From IMG/VR virus record IMGVR_UViG_3300018424_000013: DNA of 64,000 bases; one strand, given 5' to 3'. Made by a program: the position numbers and the translations under genes. The first letter of the stretch is position 1. Each line of letters starts with the position of its first letter. The notes under the pieces are model-generated. The model was not told the DNA's origin. It saw nothing but the letters and a program-made list of their open reading frames with translations, and did not search any database. The stretch comes from an uncultured virus (IMG/VR IMGVR_UViG_3300018424_000013) (Duplodnaviria > Heunggongvirae > Uroviricota > Caudoviricetes). Positions 140 through 62,944 of this stretch are shown here, piece by piece.

Positions 140-376
140 TTATTCATCCGTAACAATTTCTTTTTCAAAATTCTTTTGTTCAATATCTTTTAACATGTCC
201 TGAATACTTTTTTCAAATAATTCATTAGTTTCAGGTGAAGGGACCAAATAATCTTCATCATTTTTTACCAAAGACAAAAGTCTTAAATGATCGACTATAT
301 CAGTACCACTAAGTATTGCTACTTGAATAATTTTAGCTATATGTGCTATTGTTTCGTCAGACAGTTTTAGGCTCAT
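140..376 (-). CDS. hypothetical protein (likely start MSLKLSD at 376)
   Basis: ORF 140..427; GGAG Shine-Dalgarno precedes the ATG at 376; overlaps the end of the glycosylase gene. Confidence 0.7.
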   Translation of the reverse strand: MSLKLSDETIAHIAKIIQVAILSGTDIVDHLRLLSLVKNDEDYLVPSPETNELFEKSIQDMLKDIEQKNFEKEIVTDE

Positions 377-1196
377 TGTTATCTCCATTAGTTTGTACCT
401 TAGGCGACCAATGCGTTGTTCTACCATCAGGTGTTTTTATTTTTTCTACTAAGTTTCCTTCAGGGTCACTTTTTTGATTATACACTAAAAAACGCCGGGA
501 GTAATTACCTAAATTGCCATTAATGTCACTATAAGATTTAAAAGTTGCACCACCTTCTTCAAAACTGGTTCTTAAAACTTTTTTGACAGATCTGTTCAAC
601 ACTGCTAATTCACCATCTTCTAAATCAGATATTTTAGCATTAGGGTTTATTTTTGACAACCATAGACTATCAGCTTTTACATAATTCCCTACGCCAGCAA
701 TAACATGTTGATCCATCAAAGCTTTGCAAATATTCCATTTATTTTTAGCTCTTAGTAGGGTAATAAAATTTTGGTCTGATATATCTTCCACTAACATATC
801 TGGCCCTAATCCTTCTAGTTTATCAACTAAATAATCCTTACCAAAATCAAAACGAATTGTGCCAAAGTTTCTAGTGTCATTATAGTACACACGTGAATTA
901 TCACTAAAACAAAACTCAACACGAGAATGCTTTTGTTTTTCAATTGAAAAATTGCCAGTCATGCCCATAGTAAAACTAATGATTAACTGATCTTCTCTAC
1001 CTAGTGCATAAATGTATTTTCCATGAACACCAGCACCAACCATTTGTATTGGCAATTTAGGTTTCAAGTCATGAAAACCTTTTGGTGCTTCTCTTGAATA
1101 CTTGCCACTAAGGATATTAATATCAACTAGTGTCTTATATGATATTGCTTTTGCTAAACCTAAAGCAAACGTTCTACATTCTGGACCTTCCGGCAT
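357..1196 (-). CDS. mutM: Fpg/Nei-family DNA glycosylase/AP lyase
   Basis: N-terminal MPEGPE catalytic motif, GKY, GMTG, D-x-RNFG, LGPD, H2TH motif LMDQ..IAGVGNY..., C-terminal GRTTHW without Zn-binding cysteines (zincless finger). Confidence 0.93.
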   Translation of the reverse strand: MPEGPECRTFALGLAKAISYKTLVDINILSGKYSREAPKGFHDLKPKLPIQMVGAGVHGKYIYALGREDQLIISFTMGMTGNFSIEKQKHSRVEFCFSDNSRVYYNDTRNFGTIRFDFGKDYLVDKLEGLGPDMLVEDISDQNFITLLRAKNKWNICKALMDQHVIAGVGNYVKADSLWLSKINPNAKISDLEDGELAVLNRSVKKVLRTSFEEGGATFKSYSDINGNLGNYSRRFLVYNQKSDPEGNLVEKIKTPDGRTTHWSPKVQTNGDNNEPKTV

Positions 1197-1651: not shown

Positions 1652-2374
1652 TTACACAGATAGGAATTCTGCTTTAAGATCCTCATCTGAAAGATTATTT
1701 ATCCATGCATTCACAGTTATTGGCCAATGTTTTTTTGCAATTTTTAAGCATGCTTTTGCCACTTGCTGTATTTCCCACTGAGCACCATCGTGAAGTCTTA
1801 AGGCACAAAACTTTAAAAGGTTATTTAAATTACAAGTCCCGTAGTATTCCGTATATAAACACTGAGGTAAAATCATCCTAGCTTGTTCTCTACAAACACC
1901 AACATCTATTAGATCATTAAACGTTTGCAAACAATCACTAATTCTGCACTCTAATAATTCAGATGCTTTTATCAAACTTAATGTTGGGTAAACCCGGGGA
2001 TTGATTAATTCATCCGGATTAGAAGCTTGTCTATTACTTGTATGCTGTGTTCTAAATTTTTTAGGTTTGTAAAAATTTAAGTTAACATCTGTATAACGCC
2101 TGCTTATTTCATTGTAAGACCATGTTCTGTGTCTGTGATGTTGAGACCTGATAAATAAAGGTACGACAAACCTAAAAGTTATAACATTGTGCTCTAATGT
2201 GCTAGTGTGCTTATGTTTTATGAGATAATTAATTAATTTTTTATCTTTGTCATCAACATTATCTTTCTGTTTGCCAAAAGAAACACGAGCACTATTTACT
2301 ACAGTGATGTCTTCGCCCATGTGTTGTACATATTCTACACTTCCAATTCCGTCATTATATATTTCTATTTTCAT
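1652..2374 (-). CDS. thyX: FAD-dependent thymidylate synthase ThyX (likely start MKIEIY at 2374)
   Basis: ARVSF, HTSTLEH, RHRTWSYNEISRRY signature, REQARMILP, AQWEIQ. Confidence 0.96.
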   Translation of the reverse strand: MKIEIYNDGIGSVEYVQHMGEDITVVNSARVSFGKQKDNVDDKDKKLINYLIKHKHTSTLEHNVITFRFVVPLFIRSQHHRHRTWSYNEISRRYTDVNLNFYKPKKFRTQHTSNRQASNPDELINPRVYPTLSLIKASELLECRISDCLQTFNDLIDVGVCREQARMILPQCLYTEYYGTCNLNNLLKFCALRLHDGAQWEIQQVAKACLKIAKKHWPITVNAWINNLSDEDLKAEFLSV

Positions 2375-2396
2375 TTTACTTCTACCAATGTTATAT

Positions 2397-2497
2397 AAAA
2401 AAGAGATACGGGTTTTTTTTGATGGTCTCCACCGGCTTTTGAAAGCAAGCATCTCGTCGTGCCCGTATCATGACCATATGTGACTGCAACTACAGTC
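2397..2497 (-). ncRNA. candidate structured RNA (pseudoknot-like) between lipoprotein gene and thyX
   Basis: GC-rich intergenic segment with two interleaved perfect helices (2405-2412/2462-2469 and 2422-2427/2472-2477), small hairpins, an A8 linker and a U-tract; not matched to any family I recognise. Confidence 0.45.
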
Positions 2498-2499
2498 TA

Positions 2500-2664
2500 T
2501 TACTCTGCTTCTTCTGTCTCACCGCTTTCCGTCTCTTCAGTTTCTTCAGTTTCTTCTGCTTCTTCTGCTTCTTCAACAATCTCTACCTCTCCAGTTTCTT
2601 GTGCAATGGCAGTGTCTTCTTTATCATCGCCGCATGCAAATAAAAATAATACTGATAAAATCAT
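2500..2664 (-). CDS. small acidic lipoprotein (54 aa; not in ORF track)
   Basis: Hand translation MILSVLFLFA-C-GDDKEDTAIAQETGEVEIVEEAEEAEETEETEETESGETEEAE; lipobox LFAC; GGAG SD upstream. Confidence 0.8.
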   Translation of the reverse strand: MILSVLFLFACGDDKEDTAIAQETGEVEIVEEAEEAEETEETEETESGETEEAE

Positions 2665-2713
2665 ATGTTCTCCATTTTGTTTGTGGTCTTCTCTCGACCG
2701 GTTATAATAATTT

Positions 2714-3586
2714 TTAATAATTTTTGATTAAGACCTCTGTTGCTTTCGCACCAAAGCCTTTGTTGTGTCTTCCTGCTGTGTATTTAACATTGTTAAATAT
2801 TTTAAAATTCCAAGTATGATCAAATCTAGATGAAAACCAATTATCAACTTCTTTGTTACTCATAGAAACCAAGTTACCACTTTTTGAAACTAATTTACAC
2901 GTATCAACCAATAATGCTTGTTTGTCATCGTTAAAGCTACTACCATATCTCTGCACAGTGTCTCTATAAGGTGGGTCACAATACAACCATGCGTTCTCAT
3001 ATGATAACATACATTTTTCAAAATCATCACAAGTAATTGTAAATGATCTTAAATAGTCAATATATTTTCTTAATCTACTTTCGCTAAAAGTCACAGAGTT
3101 TCCATTGCTTTTTTGAAGCCCCGAAGGAGTTGCATATCTGTCGCCTGATTCTTTCATTGTTTGCCATATGCCATTAAAGCCCGTTTGGATTAAATATAAT
3201 AAGGTAGCATTTTCTTTTATTCTACCAAGTTTTGCATATTGTAAACGATACTCATCTCGTTTTTGATAGTACATTTTCTTTCTATCACTAACATTCAAAA
3301 CAGAATATTGTGCGATTATTTTATTATATTCTTTTACAAAGTCTTCTGTATCACTGATCATTGTTTTATACATTTCGACTATATATCTATTATTATCATT
3401 TAAGACTATAGGTAAATTTGGATACCGGTCACGAACCCACATAGAAACACAACCAGTGCCACCAAAAACATCTACAAATAAATCATGTGAAGTGCTAGCC
3501 GGAAAAAAACCAGCACTTACATACTTTTCATACATTCTGTTTTTTGCACCTGCCCACTTAAATGGTGGTTTAAAATTATTTTTCAT
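2714..3586 (-). CDS. dam: DNA adenine methyltransferase (Dam/D12 class)
   Basis: PFKWAGAK, DVFGGTGCV (motif I), GFNG, CDPPY (motif IV), TEVLIKNY; start MKNNF at 3586. Confidence 0.9.
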   Translation of the reverse strand: MKNNFKPPFKWAGAKNRMYEKYVSAGFFPASTSHDLFVDVFGGTGCVSMWVRDRYPNLPIVLNDNNRYIVEMYKTMISDTEDFVKEYNKIIAQYSVLNVSDRKKMYYQKRDEYRLQYAKLGRIKENATLLYLIQTGFNGIWQTMKESGDRYATPSGLQKSNGNSVTFSESRLRKYIDYLRSFTITCDDFEKCMLSYENAWLYCDPPYRDTVQRYGSSFNDDKQALLVDTCKLVSKSGNLVSMSNKEVDNWFSSRFDHTWNFKIFNNVKYTAGRHNKGFGAKATEVLIKNY

Positions 3587-4646
3587 TGTTTCTTCCCGAG
3601 CATTCAATTGTACCACTACAGCTGTTTTCTATTATAGCAATAGATACAACATAAGGATTGGCATTACTGGCGGGTCTTCTGTCTTCTAAGTAACCTTTAT
3701 AACCATTGCGCACAAAATCATTCGAAACCCTAATTGATGCGCCTCTATCAGCAATACCGTAAGTGAAAACATCAATATGCTGTGTTTCATGCCTACCAGT
3801 CAATCTCATACTGTTGCCTTCGCCATAATCTTTAATATTAGCATGATGCTTTTCTTTAAAAATACTCATTAAATCTTTAAGATAAGTTTCTCCGCCAGTT
3901 TCTCGCATGTACTCGTTTGAAAAATTAGTATGCATACCACTCCCATTCCAGTCACCGTCGATTGGCTTTGGATCAAAGTTAATATCATATCCATAATCTT
4001 CTGCTAATAGTTTTAAAACATACCTAGAAATTATTACATCATCAGCCGCTTTCAAAGGTGACTTACCAAATATTTGATATTCCCATTGACCAATAGCAAC
4101 TTCCGCATTTGTGCCAGTAATATCCATCCCCATGTCAATACAAGCTGACATGTGTTGGAGAGTTAATTTACGACCAACAGCTTGATTTGTTCCTACACCA
4201 CAATAATATTGGCCTTGAGGTCCAGGAGTTCCCATTTCCGGAAAGCCAAGCGGTCTTCTATTCTTTGTAATAAAATATTCTTGCTCAAAACCTAACCAGA
4301 AATGATCATGCAAATATTTTTTATGTAATTTTTCTAACAAATGTCTTTTATTAGTAACGTGTGGTATACCATTTGCATTGTAAACTTCGCAAAGTACAAC
4401 AAAGTGGTTTTTTATTGAATATGGCCACCTATAAACTCTTACAGGTTTCAACAAACATTCAGAGTTATCCCCCTCTGCTTGTTTTGTAGAAGAGCCATCA
4501 AAATTCCAATCAGGTATTTTTGATATTTCAGGCATGTTATCACCAAAACTAAAATCTATATCAGCAGTATTGACAACCTTTATTTTTGATCTTAGATTCT
4601 GTGTTTTATATCCATCTAGCCAAACATATTCTAAAATAGTTTTCAT
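3576..4646 (-). CDS. glnII: glutamine synthetase type II
   Basis: EYVWLDG, LRSK, WNFDGSST, GFEQEY, PGPQGQYYCG, NAEV..GQWEYQ, DWNGSGMHTNFS, RLTGRHET, RGASIR, YLEDRRPASN. Confidence 0.95.
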   Translation of the reverse strand: MKTILEYVWLDGYKTQNLRSKIKVVNTADIDFSFGDNMPEISKIPDWNFDGSSTKQAEGDNSECLLKPVRVYRWPYSIKNHFVVLCEVYNANGIPHVTNKRHLLEKLHKKYLHDHFWLGFEQEYFITKNRRPLGFPEMGTPGPQGQYYCGVGTNQAVGRKLTLQHMSACIDMGMDITGTNAEVAIGQWEYQIFGKSPLKAADDVIISRYVLKLLAEDYGYDINFDPKPIDGDWNGSGMHTNFSNEYMRETGGETYLKDLMSIFKEKHHANIKDYGEGNSMRLTGRHETQHIDVFTYGIADRGASIRVSNDFVRNGYKGYLEDRRPASNANPYVVSIAIIENSCSGTIECSGRNNEK

Positions 4647-28342: not shown

Positions 28343-28377
28343 AAGCACCTCGAGTTGTTTAGTAAGTTAGTAATAGT

Positions 28378-28406
28378 AATATAATTGATTGTTGAGTTAT
28401 TTACAA
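28378..28406 (-). promoter_or_regulatory. sigma70-like early promoter
   Basis: TTGTAA-N17-TATATT with T-rich upstream element. Confidence 0.65.
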
Positions 28407-28432
28407 TATTTGCTAAAAAAAATATTATTTAT

Positions 28433-28827: not shown

Positions 28828-28854
28828 GTAAGCTCCTTTGTTAGTTACATATAT

Positions 28855-28883
28855 AATATAACAAGCTTAAAGAATATTTGCAA
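28855..28883 (-). promoter_or_regulatory. sigma70-like early promoter (extended -10)
   Basis: TTGCAA-N17-TATATT with TG at extended -10 position. Confidence 0.65.
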
Positions 28884-28900
28884 AAAACACAGAAAATAAT

Positions 28901-30407: not shown

Positions 30408-30474
30408 AAAAAACCCTCTACTTAATTATAGAGGGCATTTTAAAAAACCCTCTACTTAATTATAGAGGGCATTT
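30407..30474. repeat. exact 34-bp tandem duplication containing hairpin, -10 box and SD
   Basis: TAAAAAACCCTCTACTTAATTATAGAGGGCATTT at 30407-30440 and 30441-30474; internal inverted repeat CCCTCTA/TAGAGGG. Confidence 0.95.
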
Positions 30475-30490
30475 TATTTTGTATAACAGA

Positions 30491-32291: not shown

Positions 32292-35282
32292 TTAAATTTC
32301 TGCGCCACTATTTGTAACAACAAAGTCTAATGATATAAATTCGATAGATTTAGTTGGTTGCAAAAAGATTTTTCCACGAATAGTGTTATTTTCCACATCT
32401 TGTTGAGTAGTCGTTGTTGTATCAATTACAACTTTATATCTTGTTACACCTTGTTGTTGTTTAACACGTGCCAATATAGGTTCAACAGCTGTACTAAATC
32501 TTTGCAATGTTGTTTCTCTATTTGGTTCGAAAAGAATAGTGTTAGCAACATTTCTAACTTTTCTTCTTATATCAATCAACAATCTTCTTACGTTAACTCT
32601 GTCTAATGCACTCTGCGCTTGAAGCAATGTTTTCTGGCCAAAGACAACAACGCCACTATTTCCTGCAAAGCTTGTTAAAGGATTAATGTCAGCATCATAA
32701 AGAGCGTCCATATTGTCTCTGTTTAACTTTACTTGTGCTTCTGCTGTAGTTGGCAATGCACCACGTGAAAAACCAGCTGGAGCAAACCAAGGATGAGCAA
32801 CAGCATCATTAAAAGAAAGCGCACCTAATACACCAACAGAAGGTGGAGCTTGTACCAAAGTATTAGTTGTTGGATCATTAACAAAAATGTCTGGGAAGTA
32901 AGTTGCTGCAAAACTAGTATCTAGATTTCTGTTTTGGAAACGACTAATTGTATTAGTTACTGATACTTCTTGCAAAGAACCCGTTACCAAGTTAGAAAAA
33001 CTAGTACCTACCATATCACAAACTTCCATATCCATAATATAGAGCGCATCAAATCTTTCTTCTGTTTGAGTTATAGCGTTATCTGTAATAGCTTGCTCAC
33101 GCATACCTGGGATAGCTAACAACTGAATATCAACATCAGACTTTTCTGCTAATATATCAACAGCTTTTATGTAAGCTGATACTGTAGGGCCATTTGTTCC
33201 ACCCTGATCTGTCGCAAAGTTAACTTCACGAGAAGCCGCAATATCAGACATGTTAGTTTTTTCTTTATCAAATATATTCAATCCGTCAAAAGCACCACCA
33301 ACTGGCAATGTAAATTTCATATATCTTTTAGAAGCCTGTTGCCCAAAATCTTTAGAGACATCAAGCAATCTATATGCACTAGAACTATATCCACTAGCTA
33401 CAGTGCCTTGTCGTCTATATATTGCATTTGCCCACTCACTAGGATCTACAACATCGTTACTACCATCAACTGTACCTTTTACTTTTATCTGTACTCTTTC
33501 TAAAGAAAAGATGTTGTTGTTAAACAAATCTGCATCTAATACTTCACCAGCATTACCATTCGCTACGCCTTCGTTTGCACCAACTGTAGCAGGATATGTG
33601 CCTTCATATCTAGGTGTGTACAACGTTAAATTATCAATCAACTTTGACTTTTCTTTTTGATTATTTGGATCTGTTATAAGAGTAACTTTTTCTTGTTGCA
33701 TACCCCAATACAAGCGATTATCAACTCTTTTTTGATTACCAACACCAACAGCAACTGATTGTCTGTAAGGAATTGGTGGTTGAACCATTGCTGATTGTAA
33801 ACTTTCATAATCACCCAAGTTACTAGAAGGAGCAGATATTAATGCAGAACCTGAAGTTACTAAATGATGTATACCACGATAACCCATCGGCAATGCTGTG
33901 TCTGCTATTGTTCCGTCTGCAACATCAGTAGCCATTTCAACTCTAATGTAGTTTGATCTATTTGGATATGAGCCATCAAGTACTATTTTTTGATTTCCTT
34001 CATTTTTATCAAAATCAAAATACAAGTGTTGATCACCAATAATTCTAGCTATGTATCGATCTGAATTTGGATCAAGTGATAATCCAACATATTTTTCTAA
34101 AACAATGGGGTTTACATCATCATCGTCATACCTTCTGACTAACAAATCAAAAGAACCGTACTTGTATGCTTCTTCACGAGAGTTAGCAATATTAGCAATA
34201 GAGATCTTGAAATTTCTATTACCAGCTGTACCGTCATCTAATGCATGTATTTTAAAAAGATTTTTAGGTCCATCACCTAACGTTTGTGAAATAACAAATG
34301 GTGAAAAAGCAGCTGAATATCTGTCTTCAAATCCTTCAAAGTTTGGTTCATAATCTGAACCTGACCCTCTGCTATTTCTGCCAGCAGAACCAGTAACCAT
34401 AAACAAACGATGTTCGTAATTTGATGAATGGTACCCAGGATTTATTGTAGCTAAAGCAGGGTCTACATCATAATGTGCATACAAATAATGTCCAGCATCT
34501 TCGATTTTTTGTGGATCAGTATTTAAAACGTTTGCAAAGTAATTTTTACTTAATGGGTTCATTGAAGCTGTGATAATATGTGGATACAAATCTCTATTAT
34601 CAAAACCATTTAAAAATAGTACAAAGTTTTGATCACCATCAGAATTCATATTAATAGCACCGACATTCCAACCAGCATCCTGTGAAGCACCAAAAACACC
34701 AGCTGCGGTAGTTGGAACAGTTTCTAATTCACCACCATCCCATCCGGAAAGTGCAGGTATAATACCTTGAGGAGCCATCAAAACCGCTCTTAATATTGAA
34801 GCAGTTGCTGCATTAGTAATTCCAGCGTCAGTAAAATAAGATGAGCCATTTGATTCACTCATCCAAGCACCTAAGAAATATGTACGACCTAAAGTGGTGT
34901 CACCAGCATAAGTGTTATTTCCATAGTTACCGTTTGACTGTATATTCTTTTGACCAACTACAAAACCAGCGTTAGTAACTGAGTTTGTTGATGTATTTCT
35001 TTTTTTACAATCACCAGCACCTAAAACACGAACATATGTACCAGCTGTAGCATTACGCATCCATTCTGACACGGCTAATGGTCCAAATTTTTCCCCATCA
35101 GTAGCACCAAATATTTCTGCAAAATCAGCATAAGATGCAAATGTTATTGGTACAAAAGCAGGTCCTTTATCCGCCGTGCCAACAATAGCAGCAGGTACCC
35201 CGGAAGGTCCTGTTAGTGTTGGTTGCGATAAATCTATTTCCCTAGTTGTTACACCTGGGCTTTTTAATACTCTTTCTGCCAT
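32292..35282 (-). CDS. tail sheath protein (copy 2)
   Basis: SPGVTTREIDLS, GPAFVP, PWFAPAGFSRG, INPL, FGQKTL, SALDRVNVRRLL, FEPN, FISLDF. Confidence 0.93.
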   Translation of the reverse strand: MAERVLKSPGVTTREIDLSQPTLTGPSGVPAAIVGTADKGPAFVPITFASYADFAEIFGATDGEKFGPLAVSEWMRNATAGTYVRVLGAGDCKKRNTSTNSVTNAGFVVGQKNIQSNGNYGNNTYAGDTTLGRTYFLGAWMSESNGSSYFTDAGITNAATASILRAVLMAPQGIIPALSGWDGGELETVPTTAAGVFGASQDAGWNVGAINMNSDGDQNFVLFLNGFDNRDLYPHIITASMNPLSKNYFANVLNTDPQKIEDAGHYLYAHYDVDPALATINPGYHSSNYEHRLFMVTGSAGRNSRGSGSDYEPNFEGFEDRYSAAFSPFVISQTLGDGPKNLFKIHALDDGTAGNRNFKISIANIANSREEAYKYGSFDLLVRRYDDDDVNPIVLEKYVGLSLDPNSDRYIARIIGDQHLYFDFDKNEGNQKIVLDGSYPNRSNYIRVEMATDVADGTIADTALPMGYRGIHHLVTSGSALISAPSSNLGDYESLQSAMVQPPIPYRQSVAVGVGNQKRVDNRLYWGMQQEKVTLITDPNNQKEKSKLIDNLTLYTPRYEGTYPATVGANEGVANGNAGEVLDADLFNNNIFSLERVQIKVKGTVDGSNDVVDPSEWANAIYRRQGTVASGYSSSAYRLLDVSKDFGQQASKRYMKFTLPVGGAFDGLNIFDKEKTNMSDIAASREVNFATDQGGTNGPTVSAYIKAVDILAEKSDVDIQLLAIPGMREQAITDNAITQTEERFDALYIMDMEVCDMVGTSFSNLVTGSLQEVSVTNTISRFQNRNLDTSFAATYFPDIFVNDPTTNTLVQAPPSVGVLGALSFNDAVAHPWFAPAGFSRGALPTTAEAQVKLNRDNMDALYDADINPLTSFAGNSGVVVFGQKTLLQAQSALDRVNVRRLLIDIRRKVRNVANTILFEPNRETTLQRFSTAVEPILARVKQQQGVTRYKVVIDTTTTTQQDVENNTIRGKIFLQPTKSIEFISLDFVVTNSGAEI

Positions 35283-35321: not shown

Positions 35322-38300
35322 TTATTCAAAGCTAACACCCGAGTTAGTAATAATAAAATCAATTGCAATAAATTCAATTGCTCTAGTAGGTACAACCACA
35401 ATGGTACCATTTAATCTGTTTTCATCAACATCATTAGCACTATTGTTTGAATTATCACATATTACTCTAAATTCTTCTACACCCGCCTGAGCCTGTACAA
35501 CTGCAAGCAAAGGAGATACTTGTGAAACAAATCTTTCTCGAGTTGCACTATCATTTTGTTCAAAAACAAATCTATTTGCAACAGCTGAAACCTGTCTCTT
35601 AACTTCTAATAGTAATCTTCTTACGTTAACTCTGTCCAAAGCACTTTGTGCTTTTTGCAAAGTTTTTTGACCAAATATTACAAAGCTGCCATCAGGAAAA
35701 TTTGCAATCGGGTTAATTCTATTTTCGTATAAAGAATCTCTGTCAGCAACGCTTAATTTTGTTTTAGTATTTGTTACGAAACCTAAAGCGCCTCTATTAA
35801 AACCTGCAGGTGCATACCATGGATAACTTACAGCATCGTTAAATGCCAAAGCACCTAATGCCGCTACTGAAGCAGGTACATTAACTCTTCTGTTATTATT
35901 TTGAATGTCTTCCATCTGAACATCTGGGAAGTATGCAGCTGCTGCATTGTCATCTAATGTTCTAGCAGCTAAGTCATCAACTGTTTTATCAACATCTGGT
36001 TTAGCAGTACTGTCATCAAACAATCTGTTGCCATCTTCATCGAATGTTGGAATATCCATGACATAAAGTCCCATAGAGTAATCTTTATTCTTTTCTACAG
36101 CATAATCTGTTATATAAGAATCACGAATACCAGGAATAGCTAATATATTGATGTTAGAAGCCATAGGATCTGTCATAATATCAATAGCTGTTCTATAAGA
36201 AGCCACTATGCTATTATTTTTACCAGTACCAAGTGCAACTTCTGAGCCAGTTTGATCTGCTGAACCGTAGAAACCTAATCCACCAGTAATAGTATCACCA
36301 GCATATCCAACTTGAGAACTAGCTTTATCATTCATGTAATACAAATCTTTATTTAGAATATTTGCACCATCAAACCCACCATGGAATATGTTAGTAAACT
36401 TAGCAAAGCCAGAAAACTTATTAAATGTTGTAGCAGAACTATTTAGAATAGTAGCAAAGGTAACTCTGTTTAAACTTGTGTCGATTGGATCAGCGATTTG
36501 ATAAGTTTTCTGATCTATAACACCATTTCTAATATAAGCTGCGTCTTTCATATGTGTAGGTATTGAAGCTGTAAATGATGGTAATGAGCCATTAGCACTT
36601 AGTGTTTGCACCAATGCAACTCGACCTAAAGTAAATTTATTATTATTGAATGTATCTGCAGATGATCCAGTGACCAGCGTGTCTAACTTGCTTATCCCTT
36701 GAAATTTTGAGTAAGCATCAATAACTTTATTATATTGAGATGAAACATTTGAATTTAAAACACCATCTGCAACTCGAGCAGAATCTACTATTCTGTCTGT
36801 TTTAACGCCCCAGTAGAATTGTTCTCTTGTTTTTTCTTTTGAACCAGGGTGACCTACAAAAGAAGGAGAGGTAGAAACACTGCCGCGAGTAACTTTAAAT
36901 CGTAATGGCAAAGGTGGCACTATAGAACCAGTAATACTGTTACTAATTCCTTTACCAGCTAATCTTTGATTATCAGTAAAAACAGCACTGCTGTCATCAA
37001 TTAACATTGGGTTAGTTTTTAAAACTGGTATTCCCTTAAAACCGAAAGGTAAAGCTGTTTCAGGCACGTCTTTTTTATATACAGCATCGTCAATAACAAT
37101 TCTAATATGACTTGAGACATTAGGGTATCGTCCAGATACGACTAATCTCTTTTCTTCATCTAAATCAGCGTCAAAATTAAATTTTACTTTTCTATCACCA
37201 ATAAGTCGACCAACAAATCTTTCGTTTGTAGGGTCTAAGGAACAATTAATAAATTCTTCTAATATTTCTGGTTTAGGGTCTGTATCCTTTAATCTTCTTA
37301 CTTGTACATTAAAGGTACCATACTTGTAATTGTCTTCTACGGAAGCTTTAATATTGCTAATAGAAACTTTTATTTGATCTTGTTGCATTGCACCATCTGA
37401 CAGTGTTTCGAAATGAAACAAGTTATATTCTGTCTTTCCAAACGGTTGTGATATAAACTTAGTAGTCTTTGGCGTTGTATATCTTGTATCATAGCGACCA
37501 TAAAGAGATCGGTAAGACTTGTCTGTAACATTAGCAACAGTTGAATCAGAATTTGAACCAGATAAAATAGCTACTGCGTTGGCACCTCCAACTACAGAAG
37601 CTAACTCGTCTTCAACAGCATAATCTAAATATAGCAGATGTTGTTCTCGATCGAATTTTGTTGGGTCCGTATTTAACACTTTACCAATATAATCTTTGTC
37701 GTCTGGATCTAAACTTACGTTAAAAACTTTAAAGCCTTCAACACCGTCTGTTGTTGCAAAATCTGAACCCTTCTCAGAATATAGTAGCAATCTAAATTTT
37801 TTCGTATTTGTATTTGTAGTTGCAATGTCTGCTGAAACACTATCACTATCAGCCGGCGTAGAAGCGTTATGATCTTGTACAAAGAAAACTGATCCAGTTG
37901 TGGTAAAAAGTACTGCTCTTACCAAATTAACTGTATCATCAGCTGCGCTAGCTTCTCTTAAGTTTGGGAAACTATTATTATCAGTAAAACATGGGAAGCC
38001 TACATCACTGTTTGCACTGACAGTATGTCTAGCAGTTAAAAACTGTACAACACCCAATCTTTGTCCATTCGCTGTTGCATCAGCATCACCATTGTCTATT
38101 CTAAAACCAGCATTTTTTACTATACCTTTCTCTTCTGTGTTAGCGATATCCGTCGTGGAAGTATTTGCACCAGCACCTAACACTCTTAAGAAAGTCACGC
38201 CAGCTTTGTTTTCTAAAAATTTCTCAACTGCATAGGGTCCGAATCTTTCAACATCATTTGTTCCAAAAATATTATCAAATTGTTCTTTGCTTCCTATTGT

Positions 38301-38435
38301 TACGGGAACAAACGCGGGCCCTTTTTTACTAGTACCAATAATACCAGCTGGAGTTACTGACGGAGATTCAACTTGTGCTGTAAGTTCAATTTCTCTATCA
38401 AAAAACCCGGGGCTTTTAAATGTATTTTCTGCCAT
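35322..38435 (-). CDS. tail sheath protein (copy 1; start MAENTF)
   Basis: SPGFFDREIE, GPAFVP, PWYAPAGFNRG, INPI, FGQKTL, SALDRVNVRRLL, EFIAIDF. Confidence 0.93.
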   Translation of the reverse strand: MAENTFKSPGFFDREIELTAQVESPSVTPAGIIGTSKKGPAFVPVTIGSKEQFDNIFGTNDVERFGPYAVEKFLENKAGVTFLRVLGAGANTSTTDIANTEEKGIVKNAGFRIDNGDADATANGQRLGVVQFLTARHTVSANSDVGFPCFTDNNSFPNLREASAADDTVNLVRAVLFTTTGSVFFVQDHNASTPADSDSVSADIATTNTNTKKFRLLLYSEKGSDFATTDGVEGFKVFNVSLDPDDKDYIGKVLNTDPTKFDREQHLLYLDYAVEDELASVVGGANAVAILSGSNSDSTVANVTDKSYRSLYGRYDTRYTTPKTTKFISQPFGKTEYNLFHFETLSDGAMQQDQIKVSISNIKASVEDNYKYGTFNVQVRRLKDTDPKPEILEEFINCSLDPTNERFVGRLIGDRKVKFNFDADLDEEKRLVVSGRYPNVSSHIRIVIDDAVYKKDVPETALPFGFKGIPVLKTNPMLIDDSSAVFTDNQRLAGKGISNSITGSIVPPLPLRFKVTRGSVSTSPSFVGHPGSKEKTREQFYWGVKTDRIVDSARVADGVLNSNVSSQYNKVIDAYSKFQGISKLDTLVTGSSADTFNNNKFTLGRVALVQTLSANGSLPSFTASIPTHMKDAAYIRNGVIDQKTYQIADPIDTSLNRVTFATILNSSATTFNKFSGFAKFTNIFHGGFDGANILNKDLYYMNDKASSQVGYAGDTITGGLGFYGSADQTGSEVALGTGKNNSIVASYRTAIDIMTDPMASNINILAIPGIRDSYITDYAVEKNKDYSMGLYVMDIPTFDEDGNRLFDDSTAKPDVDKTVDDLAARTLDDNAAAAYFPDVQMEDIQNNNRRVNVPASVAALGALAFNDAVSYPWYAPAGFNRGALGFVTNTKTKLSVADRDSLYENRINPIANFPDGSFVIFGQKTLQKAQSALDRVNVRRLLLEVKRQVSAVANRFVFEQNDSATRERFVSQVSPLLAVVQAQAGVEEFRVICDNSNNSANDVDENRLNGTIVVVPTRAIEFIAIDFIITNSGVSFE

Positions 38436-38480
38436 TAATAATCTCCTTTCATCATACATTAAATATGTTGATTTTTTTCA

Positions 38481-54319: not shown

Positions 54320-54589
54320 CTAATTATTGTTTATTTTATTTCTTGCCTCATTAATTGTAGGTCTCCAGCCATTTTCCCATTTTTCCCTTTGAGGAAATTT
54401 AAAATGGAGACAACATAGATAACAGCATCCTTCTTTTTTTAAAAAAACACAGTCTTTCTCTGACTGTAATGCTAAATTGCAAACTGGGCAATCGATTTCA
54501 GCTGCCCAGCCTTTAGGTTTTATAATTATAACATTATCTTTTTTAGTCCACACTTTTTCATTCGTATGATATTTTAGCGTCTCTGCCAT
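54320..54589 (-). CDS. small Zn-finger protein
   Basis: CPVC...GCCYLC...WENGWRP; start uncertain (MAETLK). Confidence 0.65.
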   Translation of the reverse strand: MAETLKYHTNEKVWTKKDNVIIIKPKGWAAEIDCPVCNLALQSEKDCVFLKKEGCCYLCCLHFKFPQREKWENGWRPTINEARNKINNN

Positions 54590-57500
54590 TTTTAGTAATC
54601 TCCAACATGTCATCTACTGAATCTTTTATTACATCGACATGAGATATAATCAATATTAACCTATAATATTTCTTAAATCTTTTTAGTAAACCACTAACAG
54701 CTTCAATATTTTGTGGGTCAAGTGCACCAAAACCTTCATCGACAATAAACATATCTGATTTATTAAGTGATGACACATTTGACAAAGCAACTCTAAGAGC
54801 CATTGACGAAACCATTTTTTCCATACCAGAACCACACTCTATTGGTCTTCTGCTGTCACCATAATTGATAAATATATTAGTGTTCCTTTCATCTACTTCT
54901 AATTCAACAGTAAAACCAGTTACATCTTCTAAAATCCTGCTTAATTCTAGGTTGATAACAGGCATTTGTTTTTCCATTATAAAGGTAGGTATACCGCGCC
55001 AGCTAGTTGCGCGCAAAAGAAAATCATAAACTGTCCACTCAACTTGCAAATCATCAAACTCTTTTTGATCTTGGATCAGTTTTTCAATTTGTCTTTGCTC
55101 GCTGCCCATATTTTGTAAAACAACATGCAACTTATTCTTCTTTTGCTTCTTCTGTGTAGTTACATCTGCAAGTTTTTTATTAATAGCTGATATTATAGCA
55201 TTATCGCTATTCTCTAACAACAACTCAATGTTCTGTGCATCTTTTGTTTTCATTGCAATAGATTTCTCTATTTCTTTTTTTGCATATTTTAATGAAATTA
55301 TTTGCTCCTTCAGTAATGCAATATTATTATTTACCTGAGATAGTTTGTTTTTAAGTGCATCATATTTCTTAATTTTATCTTTTAATTCAGTTTCGTCATA
55401 TTCCGATATTTTTTCTTTTAAGTTATCTATATCACCTTTTAAACTTTTAACCAGTGTTTTTTGTTCTGACAAGAGCAGTTTATTCTTATGACTTTCCGCT
55501 ATAAATTTACATGTAGGAAACTGATTACCACAGGGTACCTGGTTTAACAGTTTAACAGATTTTTTTTGATTATCTAATAACGAGTGTTCTTTACTATATT
55601 TTATCTTTATTTTAGAAATACTTGCATTAACACTATTGATTAAATCTAGCGTTTTGTGACAAAAGTCAATATCAACATTATTTAATATTTTTTTAGTATC
55701 AATAATATACTTTAGCTGTTTTGATATTTGTTCTGATTTATCTTTTATTTCTTCATTTACACTATCTAATTTCTTATTTTCTTTTTTTATAAGTTTTTGC
55801 AAATTGATCAGAGAATTTGGATCAACAAAATCTTTATTTTCACTCTTGGCCTCTGATTTTATTTTATCATATTCCGCTGTTAATTCACCAATATCAAACT
55901 TGAGTTTTTCTTTATTAATTTCCAAATTTTTTAAATTTTCTTTACATGCTAAAATTTCTTTTTCCCAATCTTTTTGCTCATATCTTTTCATCAAAGATTT
56001 AATGCCAGCGGATTCCTCTCTAATAACAGAAGATAAGTTATCGTAAACATCTAAACCTAAAAATGAGCTCAAAGTCTTCTTCCTATCAGTTGCGCCTTTG
56101 TTAATAAAATTATTCATATTACCTTGCGCAGCAAAAGAAGTCATCATAAATTCATCTGGGGAACCTATCAATTCACGTAAAGATTTTTCGGTGTCCTTTC
56201 TTTGTTCGCCTGATAAATCTCTAACAATGTTTTCATCATTGTCTATTTCAAATAAGTTTAGATACGACATAGCACCTTCGCCTCGAGGATTTCTATATCT
56301 AACCGATTGTCTTTCCAACCTATATGGTTTTCCATTAACAGTAAAAACAACATCAGCATTACATTCCTGAGATCTATTGTTTATTACATGCATTATAGAA
56401 GTCAAACCTCTATCGTTGGAATTAAACAAGGAATACATTAATGTTCCTGGTATAGATGATTTTCCACACCGGTTTTTGCCAAACAAACCTACAATGCCAT
56501 TTAATTTGCTAAAATTTATAGTGTTATCTTTACCATAACCAAATGTATTATCAAAATTCATCTTTTTTACTGACCACTTTGCTGATCTAAAATCAGATAT
56601 AGATTTTAAATTAGGCACTAGCTCATCAACTATTTTATCAACCTTGTTCCAAAAAACCTCATCTTTGTGAGATTCGTCAGCAGAATATTCTCTTAACAAT
56701 CTCTTATGAGTATCCGGATTTGACAAGTCTTCTAATTTTACTTTATTTGTTTGGTCTACTGTTAAACCTGTTTTATCGTTTCTTAAATCTATTTTATATA
56801 CTACTTCTTCTGCATTGTGTTCCCTTCTTAGTTTGTTACTTAGTTTTCTTTGTGTTTTAGGGTCTAAATTTTCATATGCCCTTATTCTAAATCTAGATTT
56901 TTTTGGCCAGTTAGTCATACAATTAAATGAAGTACTGTCTATATCACCAGCCCAATCTACAGTTACAAACGGAACATTATGTTTAACTTTTTTAAACTCA
57001 ACAGTGAAATTATCTTTATCCACAATGTCCCACAGAAGAAAACCCTTGTCCATGGATTCGCCATAATTTTGCTGAATTGTAGATCCGCAATACCATACAC
57101 GACCTTCTTTATCAAGTTGTTGTGTTTTATGAATATCACCTAGCATTGTAAAGTCAAATGGTTTAAATAGTGACATTCCTGTTTCACCATCTAACATGTA
57201 ATTTGTGTCAGTATGTGAACCCCAAACAGCACCGTGATATAATGCAATATTTATATTGCCATTATTCTTTGGCACAACGTTACTGTAATTCAATTCATCA
57301 AAAGGACTGAATACGCACCAGTTAACTCCAAGCTTATCACAAGGAAAAACACCGGAGTCCCTATACAAATGCACATTTGGAAGATTTAAGGCTCTTAAAA
57401 TAGGACTGATGGCATCTTGTCTATCAGTGTTAAGTACAAGTCCATCATGGTTACCTAGCATTACATACGTATCACATATATTATTCATCTCAGTAAACCA

Positions 57501-57689
57501 CCATCTTAAGCAATCAATAAGCTCAGGTGAAATACCTTGTGTTTTATTATGTACAATGTCACCAGCTACAACGATTGCATCCGGCTTAATCATTTTACAT
57601 TGATTAAACATGTCTGTGAAACTATCTTTATATTCTTTATGACGCGTCAGACCACGCCAATGAACATCAGCAATATGAACAATCTTCAT
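54558..57689 (-). CDS. fused Mre11/SbcD nuclease - Rad50/SbcC ATPase (gp47-gp46 fusion)
   Basis: ADVHW, AGDIVH, GNHD, HG, LGDIH phosphoesterase motifs, then Walker A GKNRCGKS, Q-loop AQG, coiled coil, signature GSGME, Walker B FIVDEGFGALD, ISH. Confidence 0.93.
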   Translation of the reverse strand: MKIVHIADVHWRGLTRHKEYKDSFTDMFNQCKMIKPDAIVVAGDIVHNKTQGISPELIDCLRWWFTEMNNICDTYVMLGNHDGLVLNTDRQDAISPILRALNLPNVHLYRDSGVFPCDKLGVNWCVFSPFDELNYSNVVPKNNGNINIALYHGAVWGSHTDTNYMLDGETGMSLFKPFDFTMLGDIHKTQQLDKEGRVWYCGSTIQQNYGESMDKGFLLWDIVDKDNFTVEFKKVKHNVPFVTVDWAGDIDSTSFNCMTNWPKKSRFRIRAYENLDPKTQRKLSNKLRREHNAEEVVYKIDLRNDKTGLTVDQTNKVKLEDLSNPDTHKRLLREYSADESHKDEVFWNKVDKIVDELVPNLKSISDFRSAKWSVKKMNFDNTFGYGKDNTINFSKLNGIVGLFGKNRCGKSSIPGTLMYSLFNSNDRGLTSIMHVINNRSQECNADVVFTVNGKPYRLERQSVRYRNPRGEGAMSYLNLFEIDNDENIVRDLSGEQRKDTEKSLRELIGSPDEFMMTSFAAQGNMNNFINKGATDRKKTLSSFLGLDVYDNLSSVIREESAGIKSLMKRYEQKDWEKEILACKENLKNLEINKEKLKFDIGELTAEYDKIKSEAKSENKDFVDPNSLINLQKLIKKENKKLDSVNEEIKDKSEQISKQLKYIIDTKKILNNVDIDFCHKTLDLINSVNASISKIKIKYSKEHSLLDNQKKSVKLLNQVPCGNQFPTCKFIAESHKNKLLLSEQKTLVKSLKGDIDNLKEKISEYDETELKDKIKKYDALKNKLSQVNNNIALLKEQIISLKYAKKEIEKSIAMKTKDAQNIELLLENSDNAIISAINKKLADVTTQKKQKKNKLHVVLQNMGSEQRQIEKLIQDQKEFDDLQVEWTVYDFLLRATSWRGIPTFIMEKQMPVINLELSRILEDVTGFTVELEVDERNTNIFINYGDSRRPIECGSGMEKMVSSMALRVALSNVSSLNKSDMFIVDEGFGALDPQNIEAVSGLLKRFKKYYRLILIISHVDVIKDSVDDMLEITKNGRDAKISYE

Positions 57690-61606: not shown

Positions 61607-62944
61607 CTAAAAATCTAAACGTACTTTAATTGTAAGCTGTGTTTGATTATCCTTCTCTAAAGGTCTAGACATTTTCGCAACAGCTAATAATTCTTCCGAG
61701 TCATTATACAACCCAACCCCAGTAATATAAACAAATGCTGAATCACCAGTTTCTTCGATTGTATTAATAGACCCATCAGATGTAATAAAAGTAGGGTTAC
61801 TACTAAAATTAAATTGGTCTGCCTGTGCATTACAAAAATATATTGTACTTTCAATATTTGTCTGATTTTGAAAAGCAGTCGCTGTTAAGGACCCAGATTG
61901 AAAACGTCCAGTTGAAATATGATCAATGACATTGTCGATAGAAGCTGAGCAAACAAAATCAGGTATAAATGTTGCACTGGCATTTCCACCGCCATCAGCT
62001 TCACCTATAGAAATTTCCCCGGCAGTTACTGCTCCAGCGCTAGCACCAGTATAGGAAGTATTATTCATGCCATCTATAACCCCAAGAATGTGTTGATCAG
62101 GGTCAAAAATTTTCTTCATATCTAAAACAGCCACACCAGCATCATAAAATATTAATCCAGCATTTTCTGTTGTATTGTCAGCAAACTTAAGTTGTGCGCA
62201 ATCTCCGGCATTGCTTAATCGTAAATTAGATGTAGCAGATATATCAGCAACAATTCTATTTCCTAAAATAGAAGAAGTGCATTCGCCTTTGATGCCAACA
62301 TTTGGTACAGCACCACTATCATTAGAACTAAGACTAGCACTTCTGTATATACGCATTGCAAATGTTTCTTTTCTAATTGCATCCCGCGCAAACAATCTTT
62401 TAATATCTAAAAACAAAGCTGTTCCTATTAAGTTGGAATTTGCATTAATGGATGAAGCTGCAAAGGTAGTATTTAGATTATTAGCCGGGAAGTTATCACC
62501 TAAATAAAACCCTGCTTCGGAGTCACCCAAGAGCACTTTTGCGTGTTGTCTATAAATGTCAATTTTTTCACGCATCATCAAGCTTGAACTCGGATACAAG
62601 GGCCGGTTGTTACTATTTACACTAGTGCAAATATCCATTGCTGGTGCATTTCCCCCACTGGCTTCACCGGCATCAAAGGCTGTTTTATTGAAAAACATTC
62701 CCATTGTCATATCCATAATAGGATTTGCTGTTTGCAAACTAAAATCTTGATCAAACACGGTTTGAAATAACGATGAAGTAACTCCGGGGCCAATGCCACC
62801 AGTTACAAATACCTGATATTTTTTTCTTGTAACACTGCCGCTAATATCTTCTTGAATTACATCAATAAGTTGATTAAGCTTTGTTCTAGTAGAAGTTTGG
62901 TTTCCCAATCCACCATCTTCAAAATTACCAAATTTAATTGCCAT
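61607..62944 (-). CDS. virion structural protein (paralogous C-terminal domain)
   Basis: GLIFYDAG, FNFSSNPTF, YITGVGLYND..LLAVAKMSRPLEK..IKVRLDF. Confidence 0.7.
   Translation of the reverse strand: MAIKFGNFEDGGLGNQTSTRTKLNQLIDVIQEDISGSVTRKKYQVFVTGGIGPGVTSSLFQTVFDQDFSLQTANPIMDMTMGMFFNKTAFDAGEASGGNAPAMDICTSVNSNNRPLYPSSSLMMREKIDIYRQHAKVLLGDSEAGFYLGDNFPANNLNTTFAASSINANSNLIGTALFLDIKRLFARDAIRKETFAMRIYRSASLSSNDSGAVPNVGIKGECTSSILGNRIVADISATSNLRLSNAGDCAQLKFADNTTENAGLIFYDAGVAVLDMKKIFDPDQHILGVIDGMNNTSYTGASAGAVTAGEISIGEADGGGNASATFIPDFVCSASIDNVIDHISTGRFQSGSLTATAFQNQTNIESTIYFCNAQADQFNFSSNPTFITSDGSINTIEETGDSAFVYITGVGLYNDSEELLAVAKMSRPLEKDNQTQLTIKVRLDF

Follow-up and report, generated by a model that had tools for sequence, protein, structure and literature searches.

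A terminator-like RNA helix behind a small inserted gene upstream of thyX in a marine T4-like phage

A stretch of DNA from an uncultured virus (IMG/VR IMGVR_UViG_3300018424_000013) carries, at positions 2397-2497 between a small open reading frame (ORF) of 54 amino acids (aa) and the thymidylate synthase gene thyX, an intergenic segment that can be folded on paper into two interleaved RNA helices. This locus raises the question of whether a structured RNA controls thyX or whether the segment belongs to the gene in front of it. A preliminary description of the sequence had favored the first possibility and proposed a novel H-type pseudoknot in the thyX leader. We analyzed the segment within the whole 64-kb stretch, hereafter the window, whose numbering is used throughout; the element is read on the minus strand. 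Our tentative answer, held with slightly less than even confidence, is that the flagged stretch is the untranslated tail of a small inserted gene, ending in an atypical, probably leaky terminator or attenuator. The features of the sequence, their statistics, the status as an insert and the predicted folds are shown below; termination, leakiness and read-through are inferred.

The sequence details given in the preliminary description were all present on the minus strand (Table 1). Two perfect Watson-Crick helices, S1 of 6 base pairs (bp) and S2 of 8 bp, neither of which can be extended, are interleaved in the order a-b-a'-b' and leave loops of 2 (L1), 34 (L2) and 9 (L3) nucleotides (nt). Five of the eight pairs of S2 are G-C, and the U-tract UCUUUUUU follows this helix at offset 0. 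The segment had also been described as rich in guanine and cytosine (GC) for intergenic DNA of this phage, and this was borne out by the counts: the spacer (125-126 nt) has a GC fraction of 0.40, the highest among the 21 gaps of at least 40 nt, the rest ranging from 0.11 to 0.35, and the core at 2405-2477 (GC 0.479) falls in the top 1.4% of all 73-nt windows.

The frequency at which such helices arise by chance was estimated from 2000 dinucleotide shuffles of the spacer (126 nt). A perfect helix of at least 6 bp was found in 1511 shuffled sequences and one of at least 8 bp in 164, and a crossing pair of 6 and 8 bp was present in 42 of the 2000. Among the 164 shuffles holding an 8-bp helix, those 42 (26%) also held a crossing 6-bp helix. 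The real 64 kb contained 67 crossing 6 + 8 bp pairs in 46 separate 100-nt bins, and only two of these pairs passed the GC filter, the present element and one within the fpg gene. The a-b-a'-b' arrangement as a whole is thus not beyond chance. Perfect interleaved helices are striking by eye, yet the 64 kb of this AT-rich phage sequence hold dozens of them, and a conservation or positional argument is therefore needed before a pseudoknot is called.

Such a positional signal exists for S2. Two of the 61 minus-strand U-tracts are directly abutted by an 8-bp helix, whereas shuffling of the upstream 100 nt leads one to expect 0.05 per window. S2 abutting its U-tract is the sole part of the element that lies above chance. 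The signal is real but modest, because with a looser definition of the U-tract three long-loop helices (at least 7 bp with at least 3 G-C pairs) were also found within coding sequence, at 62273, 39419 and 27143.

Several features of S2 are those of a transcription terminator. It is read from the same strand as the genes, roughly 100 nt past the stop codon of the ORF before it, and its 3' arm, the U-tract and the AUAUA that follows resemble the clear terminators of the window, for example ...CCCUCUUUUUUAUUAAA at 12933-12910 and ...GCGCCUUUUUUUAUAUAC in the gap 31753-31611. In the predicted nested ensemble the probability of S2 was 0.94-1.00 for a 92-nt domain and 0.90-0.95 for 124 nt. In the corresponding nested fold (-19.3 kcal/mol), S2 closes a three-way junction with two small hairpins, of which the local hairpin GGUGG-AGA-CCAUC is worth -6.5 kcal/mol. 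A knot that keeps S2 and forms S1 in place of this local hairpin would gain about -10.6 kcal/mol in stacking, minus the knot penalty. The Dirks-Pierce penalty for a knot is about 9.6 kcal/mol, and with this value the knot comes out roughly 5 kcal/mol worse than the nested fold. Crude as this estimate is, the energy comparison favors the nested three-way fold and not the knot. The proposed novel H-type pseudoknot was thus not upheld, its crossing helix being at chance level and the nested fold being preferred by the rough energies.

A different role for S1 is suggested by the folds predicted for unfinished transcripts. When the RNA was ended at the A8 run, so that the last arm of S2 had not yet been made, hairpin 1 and S1 were predicted to form, S1 with a probability of 0.51-0.91. 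In this predicted nascent fold S1 encloses an inner helix, in which 2467-2465 and 2463-2461 are paired with 2436-2430 and which occupies five of the eight bases of the 5' arm of S2. The best reading of these models is that S1 is part of a competing early fold, or coincidental, and not a pseudoknot partner of S2.

These results are consistent with the following course of events. Before the last arm is made, the nascent RNA would fold into S1 and the inner helix that holds the 5' arm of S2. S2, abutting UCUUUUUU, would act like an intrinsic terminator that closes a branched loop of 49 nt, and it would have to displace the early fold while the polymerase is briefly on the U-tract, because the inner helix ties up five of the eight bases of its 5' arm. 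Part of the polymerases would read on into thyX. A scan limited to sigma-70-like promoters found no minus-strand site within the spacer, nor one upstream of the small ORF that could serve as a promoter of the insert; its sole minus-strand match (2674..2646, 9/12) overlaps the start codon of the small ORF. Since the spacer is devoid of such a site, thyX probably depends on transcripts begun upstream, for example at a TGGTATAAT site in the gap 4707-4647. The predicted terminator would be leaky, and would thus act as an attenuator, because the nascent fold competes with it and because thyX itself lacks a promoter-like site.

The comparison with related phages places the element with the small ORF. 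The order amidase, glutamine synthetase, methylase, [54-aa ORF and spacer], thyX, 106-aa protein, fpg recurs in relatives, and the slot in front of thyX varies among related marine T4-like phages. In one relative (L058) the stop of the methylase is separated from the ATG of thyX by 17 nt, versus 339 nt (2375-2713) in the window. In L080 the methylase is followed by a 67-aa DUF7417 ORF that thyX overlaps, and in L060, L111 and L107 glutamine synthetase is separated from thyX by one more ORF, which is a 4HBT thioesterase (Pfam) in L060 and looks alike in translation in L111 and L107. In L053, amidase and thyX flank a 50-nt gap with a promoter-like site, TTGATC-17-TATAAT. The 339-nt insert has a GC fraction of 0.389, compared with 0.328 for thyX, 0.320 for the methylase and 0.335 for the window, which puts it in the top 7.6% of 339-nt windows. 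Judged from synteny, 2375-2713 is a lineage-specific, GC-richer addition in a variable slot, because thyX abuts its upstream gene in syntenic relatives (the 17-nt gap of L058).

Relatives of the element itself were sought in several collections. The window is part of a viral contig of 269,598 bp, and another contig (21,977 bp) has the same sequence at this place. Searches based on ThyX yielded 37 non-identical viral and 79 non-identical metagenome loci (36-77% identity; some contigs occur in both sets), and none of these 116 thyX loci carried the element by blastn, which matched only the two contigs of the window itself. A single-sequence covariance model (R1) was run on the window and on 99 of the 116 thyX loci, leaving out L007, L010, L014, L018, L019, L034, L035, L038, L086-L088, L102, L116-L118, L123 and L124; none matched, the window being the sole match and the next best having E-values of 3.4-9.1. 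A 19-mer scan of the viral collection returned the same two contigs only. With an 18-mer, nine further contigs were found, which we attribute to chance because they come from GC-richer phage and their flanks show no similarity. Two scans of 185,579 prokaryote genomes gave no match to the element, cultured phages gave only chance matches of 24-33 nt (E of at least 1) and matches to thyX coding sequence, and the methylase, used as a query, found the same two contigs only. From these comparisons the element is a feature of the inserted ORF and not of thyX, because none of the 116 thyX loci carries it and the slot holds a moron-like insert.

No known RNA family was recognized either. Rfam 15 at gathering thresholds had no match in the whole 64 kb, where the preliminary description had seen no likeness to the ZTP, THF, preQ1, ykkC or HDV consensus, and there was no match to the Rfam models of ZTP, THF, preQ1, SAM-II/V or glutamine RNAs. 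In E-value mode, with E up to 10, only noise was returned at E 0.3-9 (snoRNAs, U4, RAGATH-27), including two unrelated pseudoknot entries at 9-12 bits. The suggestion of a riboswitch-like RNA in the thyX leader is thus unsupported; it finds no counterpart in Rfam or at the 116 non-identical thyX loci, and S1 is at chance level.

Sequence variants of the same population were also compared. Two variants from public runs are identical to the window across the element, and the nearest difference is a C>T change (plus strand) at 2379, within the weak Shine-Dalgarno (SD)-like GGUAGAAG. A contig from run X10, about 2% diverged, covers 2027-3475 with 27 differences, none of which falls in 2380-2610; the same contig has no differences in 3084-3403 either, and the invariance of 2380-2610 therefore says nothing about selection. 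Within the stretch 2027-3475 this variant contig also has gaps that add up to 18 letters, a multiple of three. A contig from run X11 spans 2237-2563 with two differences. The only clean contig from the RNA run X20 lies within thyX (1950-2118) and none falls on the element, a result that speaks neither for nor against its transcription. Every run showed a depth of up to 198 from many unrelated contigs over the GAA/GAG-rich tail of the small ORF (2523-2593), a depth that has no meaning because unrelated GAA-repeat contigs map there.

Several observations weigh against a terminator. With a longer 5' flank (164 nt) the predicted probability of S2 fell to roughly 0.22, since the U-tract can then pair with GAAGAA repeats in the tail of the ORF. 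The loop of S2, with its 49 nt and two predicted inner hairpins, is far from the 3-8 nt of the measured window terminators, and the window terminators judged only by eye appear compact as well. A scan for consensus terminators (loops of 3-8 nt) between 2300 and 2850 called no site. The folding energies were ordinary when compared with shuffled sequences (z = -0.36 for 151 nt, -1.28 for 81 nt and -0.93 for the 56-nt S1 domain), and the 88-nt nascent piece was borderline, with z = -1.90 and 8 of 200 shuffles equally good. No diverged homolog was found among the collections searched, so that conservation of S2 is unsupported. Finally, a genuine terminator would come at a cost to a thyX that lacks a promoter, and the data are also compatible with a helix without function.

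That last possibility, a spacer left over from the arrival of the small ORF from a GC-richer source, with both helices coincidental, is unlikely in our view, while keeping appreciable weight. The 46 places with crossing 6 + 8 bp pairs, the three long-loop helices beside U-tracts in coding sequence, the z-scores that do not reach significance, the absence of conservation anywhere searched and the higher GC content of the block relative to its surroundings all agree with it. However, a perfect 8-bp helix exactly at a strict U-tract is the one feature expected at only 0.05 per window, and S2 is placed where a terminator would be expected, after the inserted ORF.

We see only a slim chance of a two-state or pseudoknotted cis-regulatory RNA, in which S1 would clamp the 5' flank to the stretch before the last arm of the terminator and a ligand, a protein or a ribosome would decide whether transcription enters thyX. 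Loops of 2, 34 and 9 nt are sterically possible by rules of thumb. Both helices are perfect, S1 dominates the predicted nascent fold, the z-score of the 88-nt nascent piece is borderline (-1.90), the core is unusually GC-rich for this phage and a 28-codon ATG frame spans the whole terminator. In the experiments of a 2026 preprint (bioRxiv 10.64898/2026.06.17.733018), structures just upstream of terminators suppress termination. Against this, S1 is at chance once S2 is given (42 of 164), the GGUGG/CCAUC hairpin competes for the 3' strand of S1, and the knot lies about 5 kcal/mol above the nested fold with the penalty used above. In addition, there is no match to Rfam or to an aptamer, no homolog, no such leader at the 116 other thyX loci and no promoter of the element's own in the sigma-70-like scan. 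A singleton 'clamped terminator' leader, whose early S1 domain would hold the 5' arm of the terminator and meter read-through into a promoterless thyX, is a comparably long shot. It could be coupled to ribosomes that complete the small ORF and then restart on the 28-codon frame, in a pyrBI-like manner, or to a ligand or protein that stabilizes S1; this frame is statistically not unusual.

A structure that stabilizes or processes the 3' end of the upstream messenger RNA (mRNA), protecting it from exonucleases without termination, is likewise improbable. The position of hairpin 1 directly after the double stop and that of the S2 domain at the end of the inserted ORF would suit it, but nothing sets it apart from termination, which better explains the U-tract. 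The preliminary description had listed such a 3' structure as an alternative; the part of it that places a structure, with its second helix and U-tract, at the 3' end of the upstream gene is close to the reading favored here.

A coding origin of the spacer, as an extension of ThyX from an ATG at 2452, as the 28-codon frame or as the remnant of a decayed gene, is very improbable. Much of the spacer is free of stop codons in all three minus-strand frames and the ATG at 2452 is in frame with thyX, but neither 2452 nor 2477 is preceded by an SD sequence, and six-frame peptides searched by tblastn against 125 related or chance loci had a best E-value of 0.15, which led us to reject the gene remnant. 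The alignment with ThyX of relatives begins at residues 1-5, counted from the start at 2374, and the spacer is therefore not ThyX coding sequence; an extension from 2452 is thus largely refuted by sequence comparison, and a ThyX start further upstream, which the preliminary description had named as a possible objection to its own proposal, can be set aside.

The least credible of the alternatives is a gene for a small non-coding RNA or part of a transfer-messenger RNA (tmRNA), with the GC-rich island in an AT-rich genome and the adjacency of thyX and tmRNA elsewhere in its favor, since ARAGORN found no tRNA or tmRNA gene in the window, no tmRNA or small RNA model of Rfam matched, no promoter was found and no cultured phage has a ThyX more than about 43% identical to the present one. 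The same points speak against the small RNA alternative of the preliminary description, and the ARAGORN and Rfam results led us to reject a tmRNA piece beside thyX. The adjacency is reported in passages of PMC2704228 for SAR11 and in passages of PMC9004378 for phage Melnitz, there with a glutamine riboswitch; these passages of the two papers make no mention of a leader RNA of thyX.

Table 1. Positions of the RNA element, the surrounding genes and the clear terminators in the window (minus-strand features are read from the higher to the lower number).
Feature	Position	Strand	Remarks
N6-adenine DNA methyltransferase (dam-like)	2714..3616	(-)	Pfam MethyltransfD12, E 1.8e-27
Left flank of insert, 49-nt gap	2665..2713	(-)	GGAG 5 nt before the ATG of the small ORF
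54-aa ORF (called a lipoprotein in the preliminary description)	2500..2664	(-)	hydrophobic N-terminus, LFAC lipobox-like motif, very acidic tail
End of 54-aa ORF	TAA 2502-2500, then TAG 2499-2497	(-)	sequence reading
Hairpin 1, GACUG-UAGUUG-CAGUC	2497-2482	(-)	5 Watson-Crick pairs + U-G; no U-tract after it
S1 5' strand, AUGGUC (DNA ATGGTC)	2477-2472	(-)	doubles as ATG of the 28-codon frame
S2 5' arm, GATACGGG (RNA GAUACGGG)	2469-2462	(-)	5' arm of terminator-like helix
Inner small hairpin, GCTTTCAAAAGC (RNA GCUUUCAAAAGC)	2446-2435	(-)	4 bp usable
Local hairpin, GGUGG-AGA-CCAUC	2433-2421	(-)	rival of S1 for the GACCAU strand 2427-2422
S1 3' strand, GACCAU (DNA GACCAT)	2427-2422	(-)	sequence reading
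A8 run	2420-2413	(-)	would be loop 3 of a knot; unpaired within the 49-nt loop if there is no knot
S2 3' arm, CCCGTATC (RNA CCCGUAUC)	2412-2405	(-)	partner of 2469-2462
U-tract, TCTTTTTT (RNA UCUUUUUU)	2404-2397	(-)	7/8 U; directly 3' of S2
AU-rich 22-nt spacer up to thyX ATG	2396-2375	(-)	weak SD-like GGUAGAAG at 2386-2379
28-codon ATG frame	2391..2477	(-), minus frame 1	covers both S2 arms and the U-tract; no SD; speculative
thyX, flavin-dependent thymidylate synthase	1652..2374	(-)	Pfam Thy1, E 3.4e-48; ATG at 2374
Clear terminators of the window	6723-6701; 12933-12910; tandem pair 30490-30408; gaps 31753-31611, 41561-41370, 41971-41868, 42320-42257	(-)	

The genes around the element were examined in the same way. 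For the 54-aa ORF we found no Pfam family, a weak PHROG match only (E 0.0056) and no relative but itself in viral contigs; it has no basic n-region, and its sole change among the variants, at 2611, is a synonymous one in a third codon position. The SD sequence seen elsewhere in the window is GGAG, compared with the weak SD-like motif before thyX. The methylase shares 45% identity with the ORF upstream of thyX in L058 and 41% with that in L080, and the 3' ends align. Upstream of it, a 356-aa glutamine synthetase-like protein (3576-4646, minus strand; Pfam Gln-synt_C and Gln-synt_N) is 41-44% identical to its counterparts in L060, L111 and L107, and the 3' end of its gene overlaps the listed GTG start of the methylase ORF by 41 nt. 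On the other side of thyX lies a gene for a complete Fpg/Nei-type DNA glycosylase with three Pfam domains (357-1196, minus strand), which is found beside thyX in several relatives at 40-57% identity and whose 3' end is overlapped by 71 nt by a 95-aa ORF (140-427, minus strand).

The phage, which occurs in salt-marsh samples, is a marine T4-like jumbo phage with a gp23 capsid protein, a gp20 portal, a T4-type terminase, RecA/UvsX, a DnaB-type helicase and ribonucleotide reductase. Throughout the 64 kb the minus strand carries every one of the 58 mapped ORFs, whether for replication or for structural proteins. Two neighboring ORFs (32292-35282 and 35322-38459, minus strand), each roughly 1000 aa long, have tail-sheath C-terminal domains and encode paralogous giant sheath-like proteins. 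In a 1043-aa ORF (54558-57689, minus strand) a Metallophos (Mre11-like) N-terminus is joined to SMC_N/AAA_23 (Rad50-like) segments, and these domains suggest a fusion of the T4 nuclease pair gp47/gp46. Among the intergenic regions, a single gap holds two back-to-back copies of one 34-nt terminator, AAAAUGCCCUCUAUAAUUAAGUAGAGGGUUUUUU (30408-30490, minus strand). One motif, TTTTTT(A)GCAAATATT, is present in both of the gaps 28343-28432 and 28828-28900 (minus strand). It differs from the sigma-70-type TGGTATAAT sites of the gaps 4707-4647 and 26825-26758 and may represent a phage-specific promoter class.

Taken alone, the element, of an ordinary kind, unusual in its geometry and found in one phage lineage, carries little weight. 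It is an example of how small accessory genes are slotted, with a 3' structure of their own, between conserved genes of T4-like marine phages, and read-through may be what the gene behind such an insert relies on. Were the two-state alternative true, the element would be a further case of a phage leader that clamps a terminator.

The element can finally be compared with known systems. SAM-II, SAM-V, preQ1-II, fluoride and ZTP riboswitches share with it the a-b-a'-b' helices, an A-rich third loop and a downstream gene of folate or nucleotide metabolism. It differs from these pseudoknot riboswitches in that it had no covariance-model match with E up to 10 and is not conserved, its 34-nt middle loop has hairpins of its own and the ribosome-binding site does not lie in a helix. 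The leader pseudoknot of gene 32 in T4 and T2 also comes from a T4-type phage and, if the knot formed here, both would have an H-type fold followed by an unstructured AU-rich run to the start codon. The knot of gene 32, a translational operator, is conserved and compact, sits at the 5' end of the mRNA and is bound by the product of its own gene, whereas compactness, conservation, a place at the 5' end and self-binding were not seen in the present element.

The T2 gene 32 knot is named as a test structure in passages of the study of tug-of-war (TOW) antitermination by Bushhouse, Fu and Lucks (bioRxiv 10.64898/2026.06.17.733018), according to which upstream hairpins or a pseudoknot a few nt from a terminator lower termination. 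Common to both is a structure beside a terminator without shared sequence; the TOW structure lies wholly upstream of a compact terminator, whereas S1 straddles the 5' arm of S2 and ends inside its loop, and no aptamer was identified in the present element.

Set against intrinsic terminators, the element has an unusually large and branched loop of 49 nt and no A-tract before its 5' arm, the A8 run being inside the loop; its 5' arm is predicted to be tied up earlier and the consensus scan does not call it. In agreement with such terminators, a G-C-containing helix downstream of a gene, and on its coding strand, runs straight into a U-tract, in a similar AUAUA context.

Hyperplastic regions are known from T4-like genomes, and the slot upstream of thyX can be placed beside the variable small-gene slots of these phages as well as beside morons. 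The latter are described, in passages of PMC3594210, as additions with deviating GC content and their own terminator. The present insert differs from morons in that no promoter of its own was found in the sigma-70-like scan and in that its host virus is a T4-like, presumably lytic myovirus and not a prophage. It shares with them extra DNA that separates two genes which are neighbors in a relative (L058), a deviating GC content, a small membrane-type ORF and a terminator-like 3' end.

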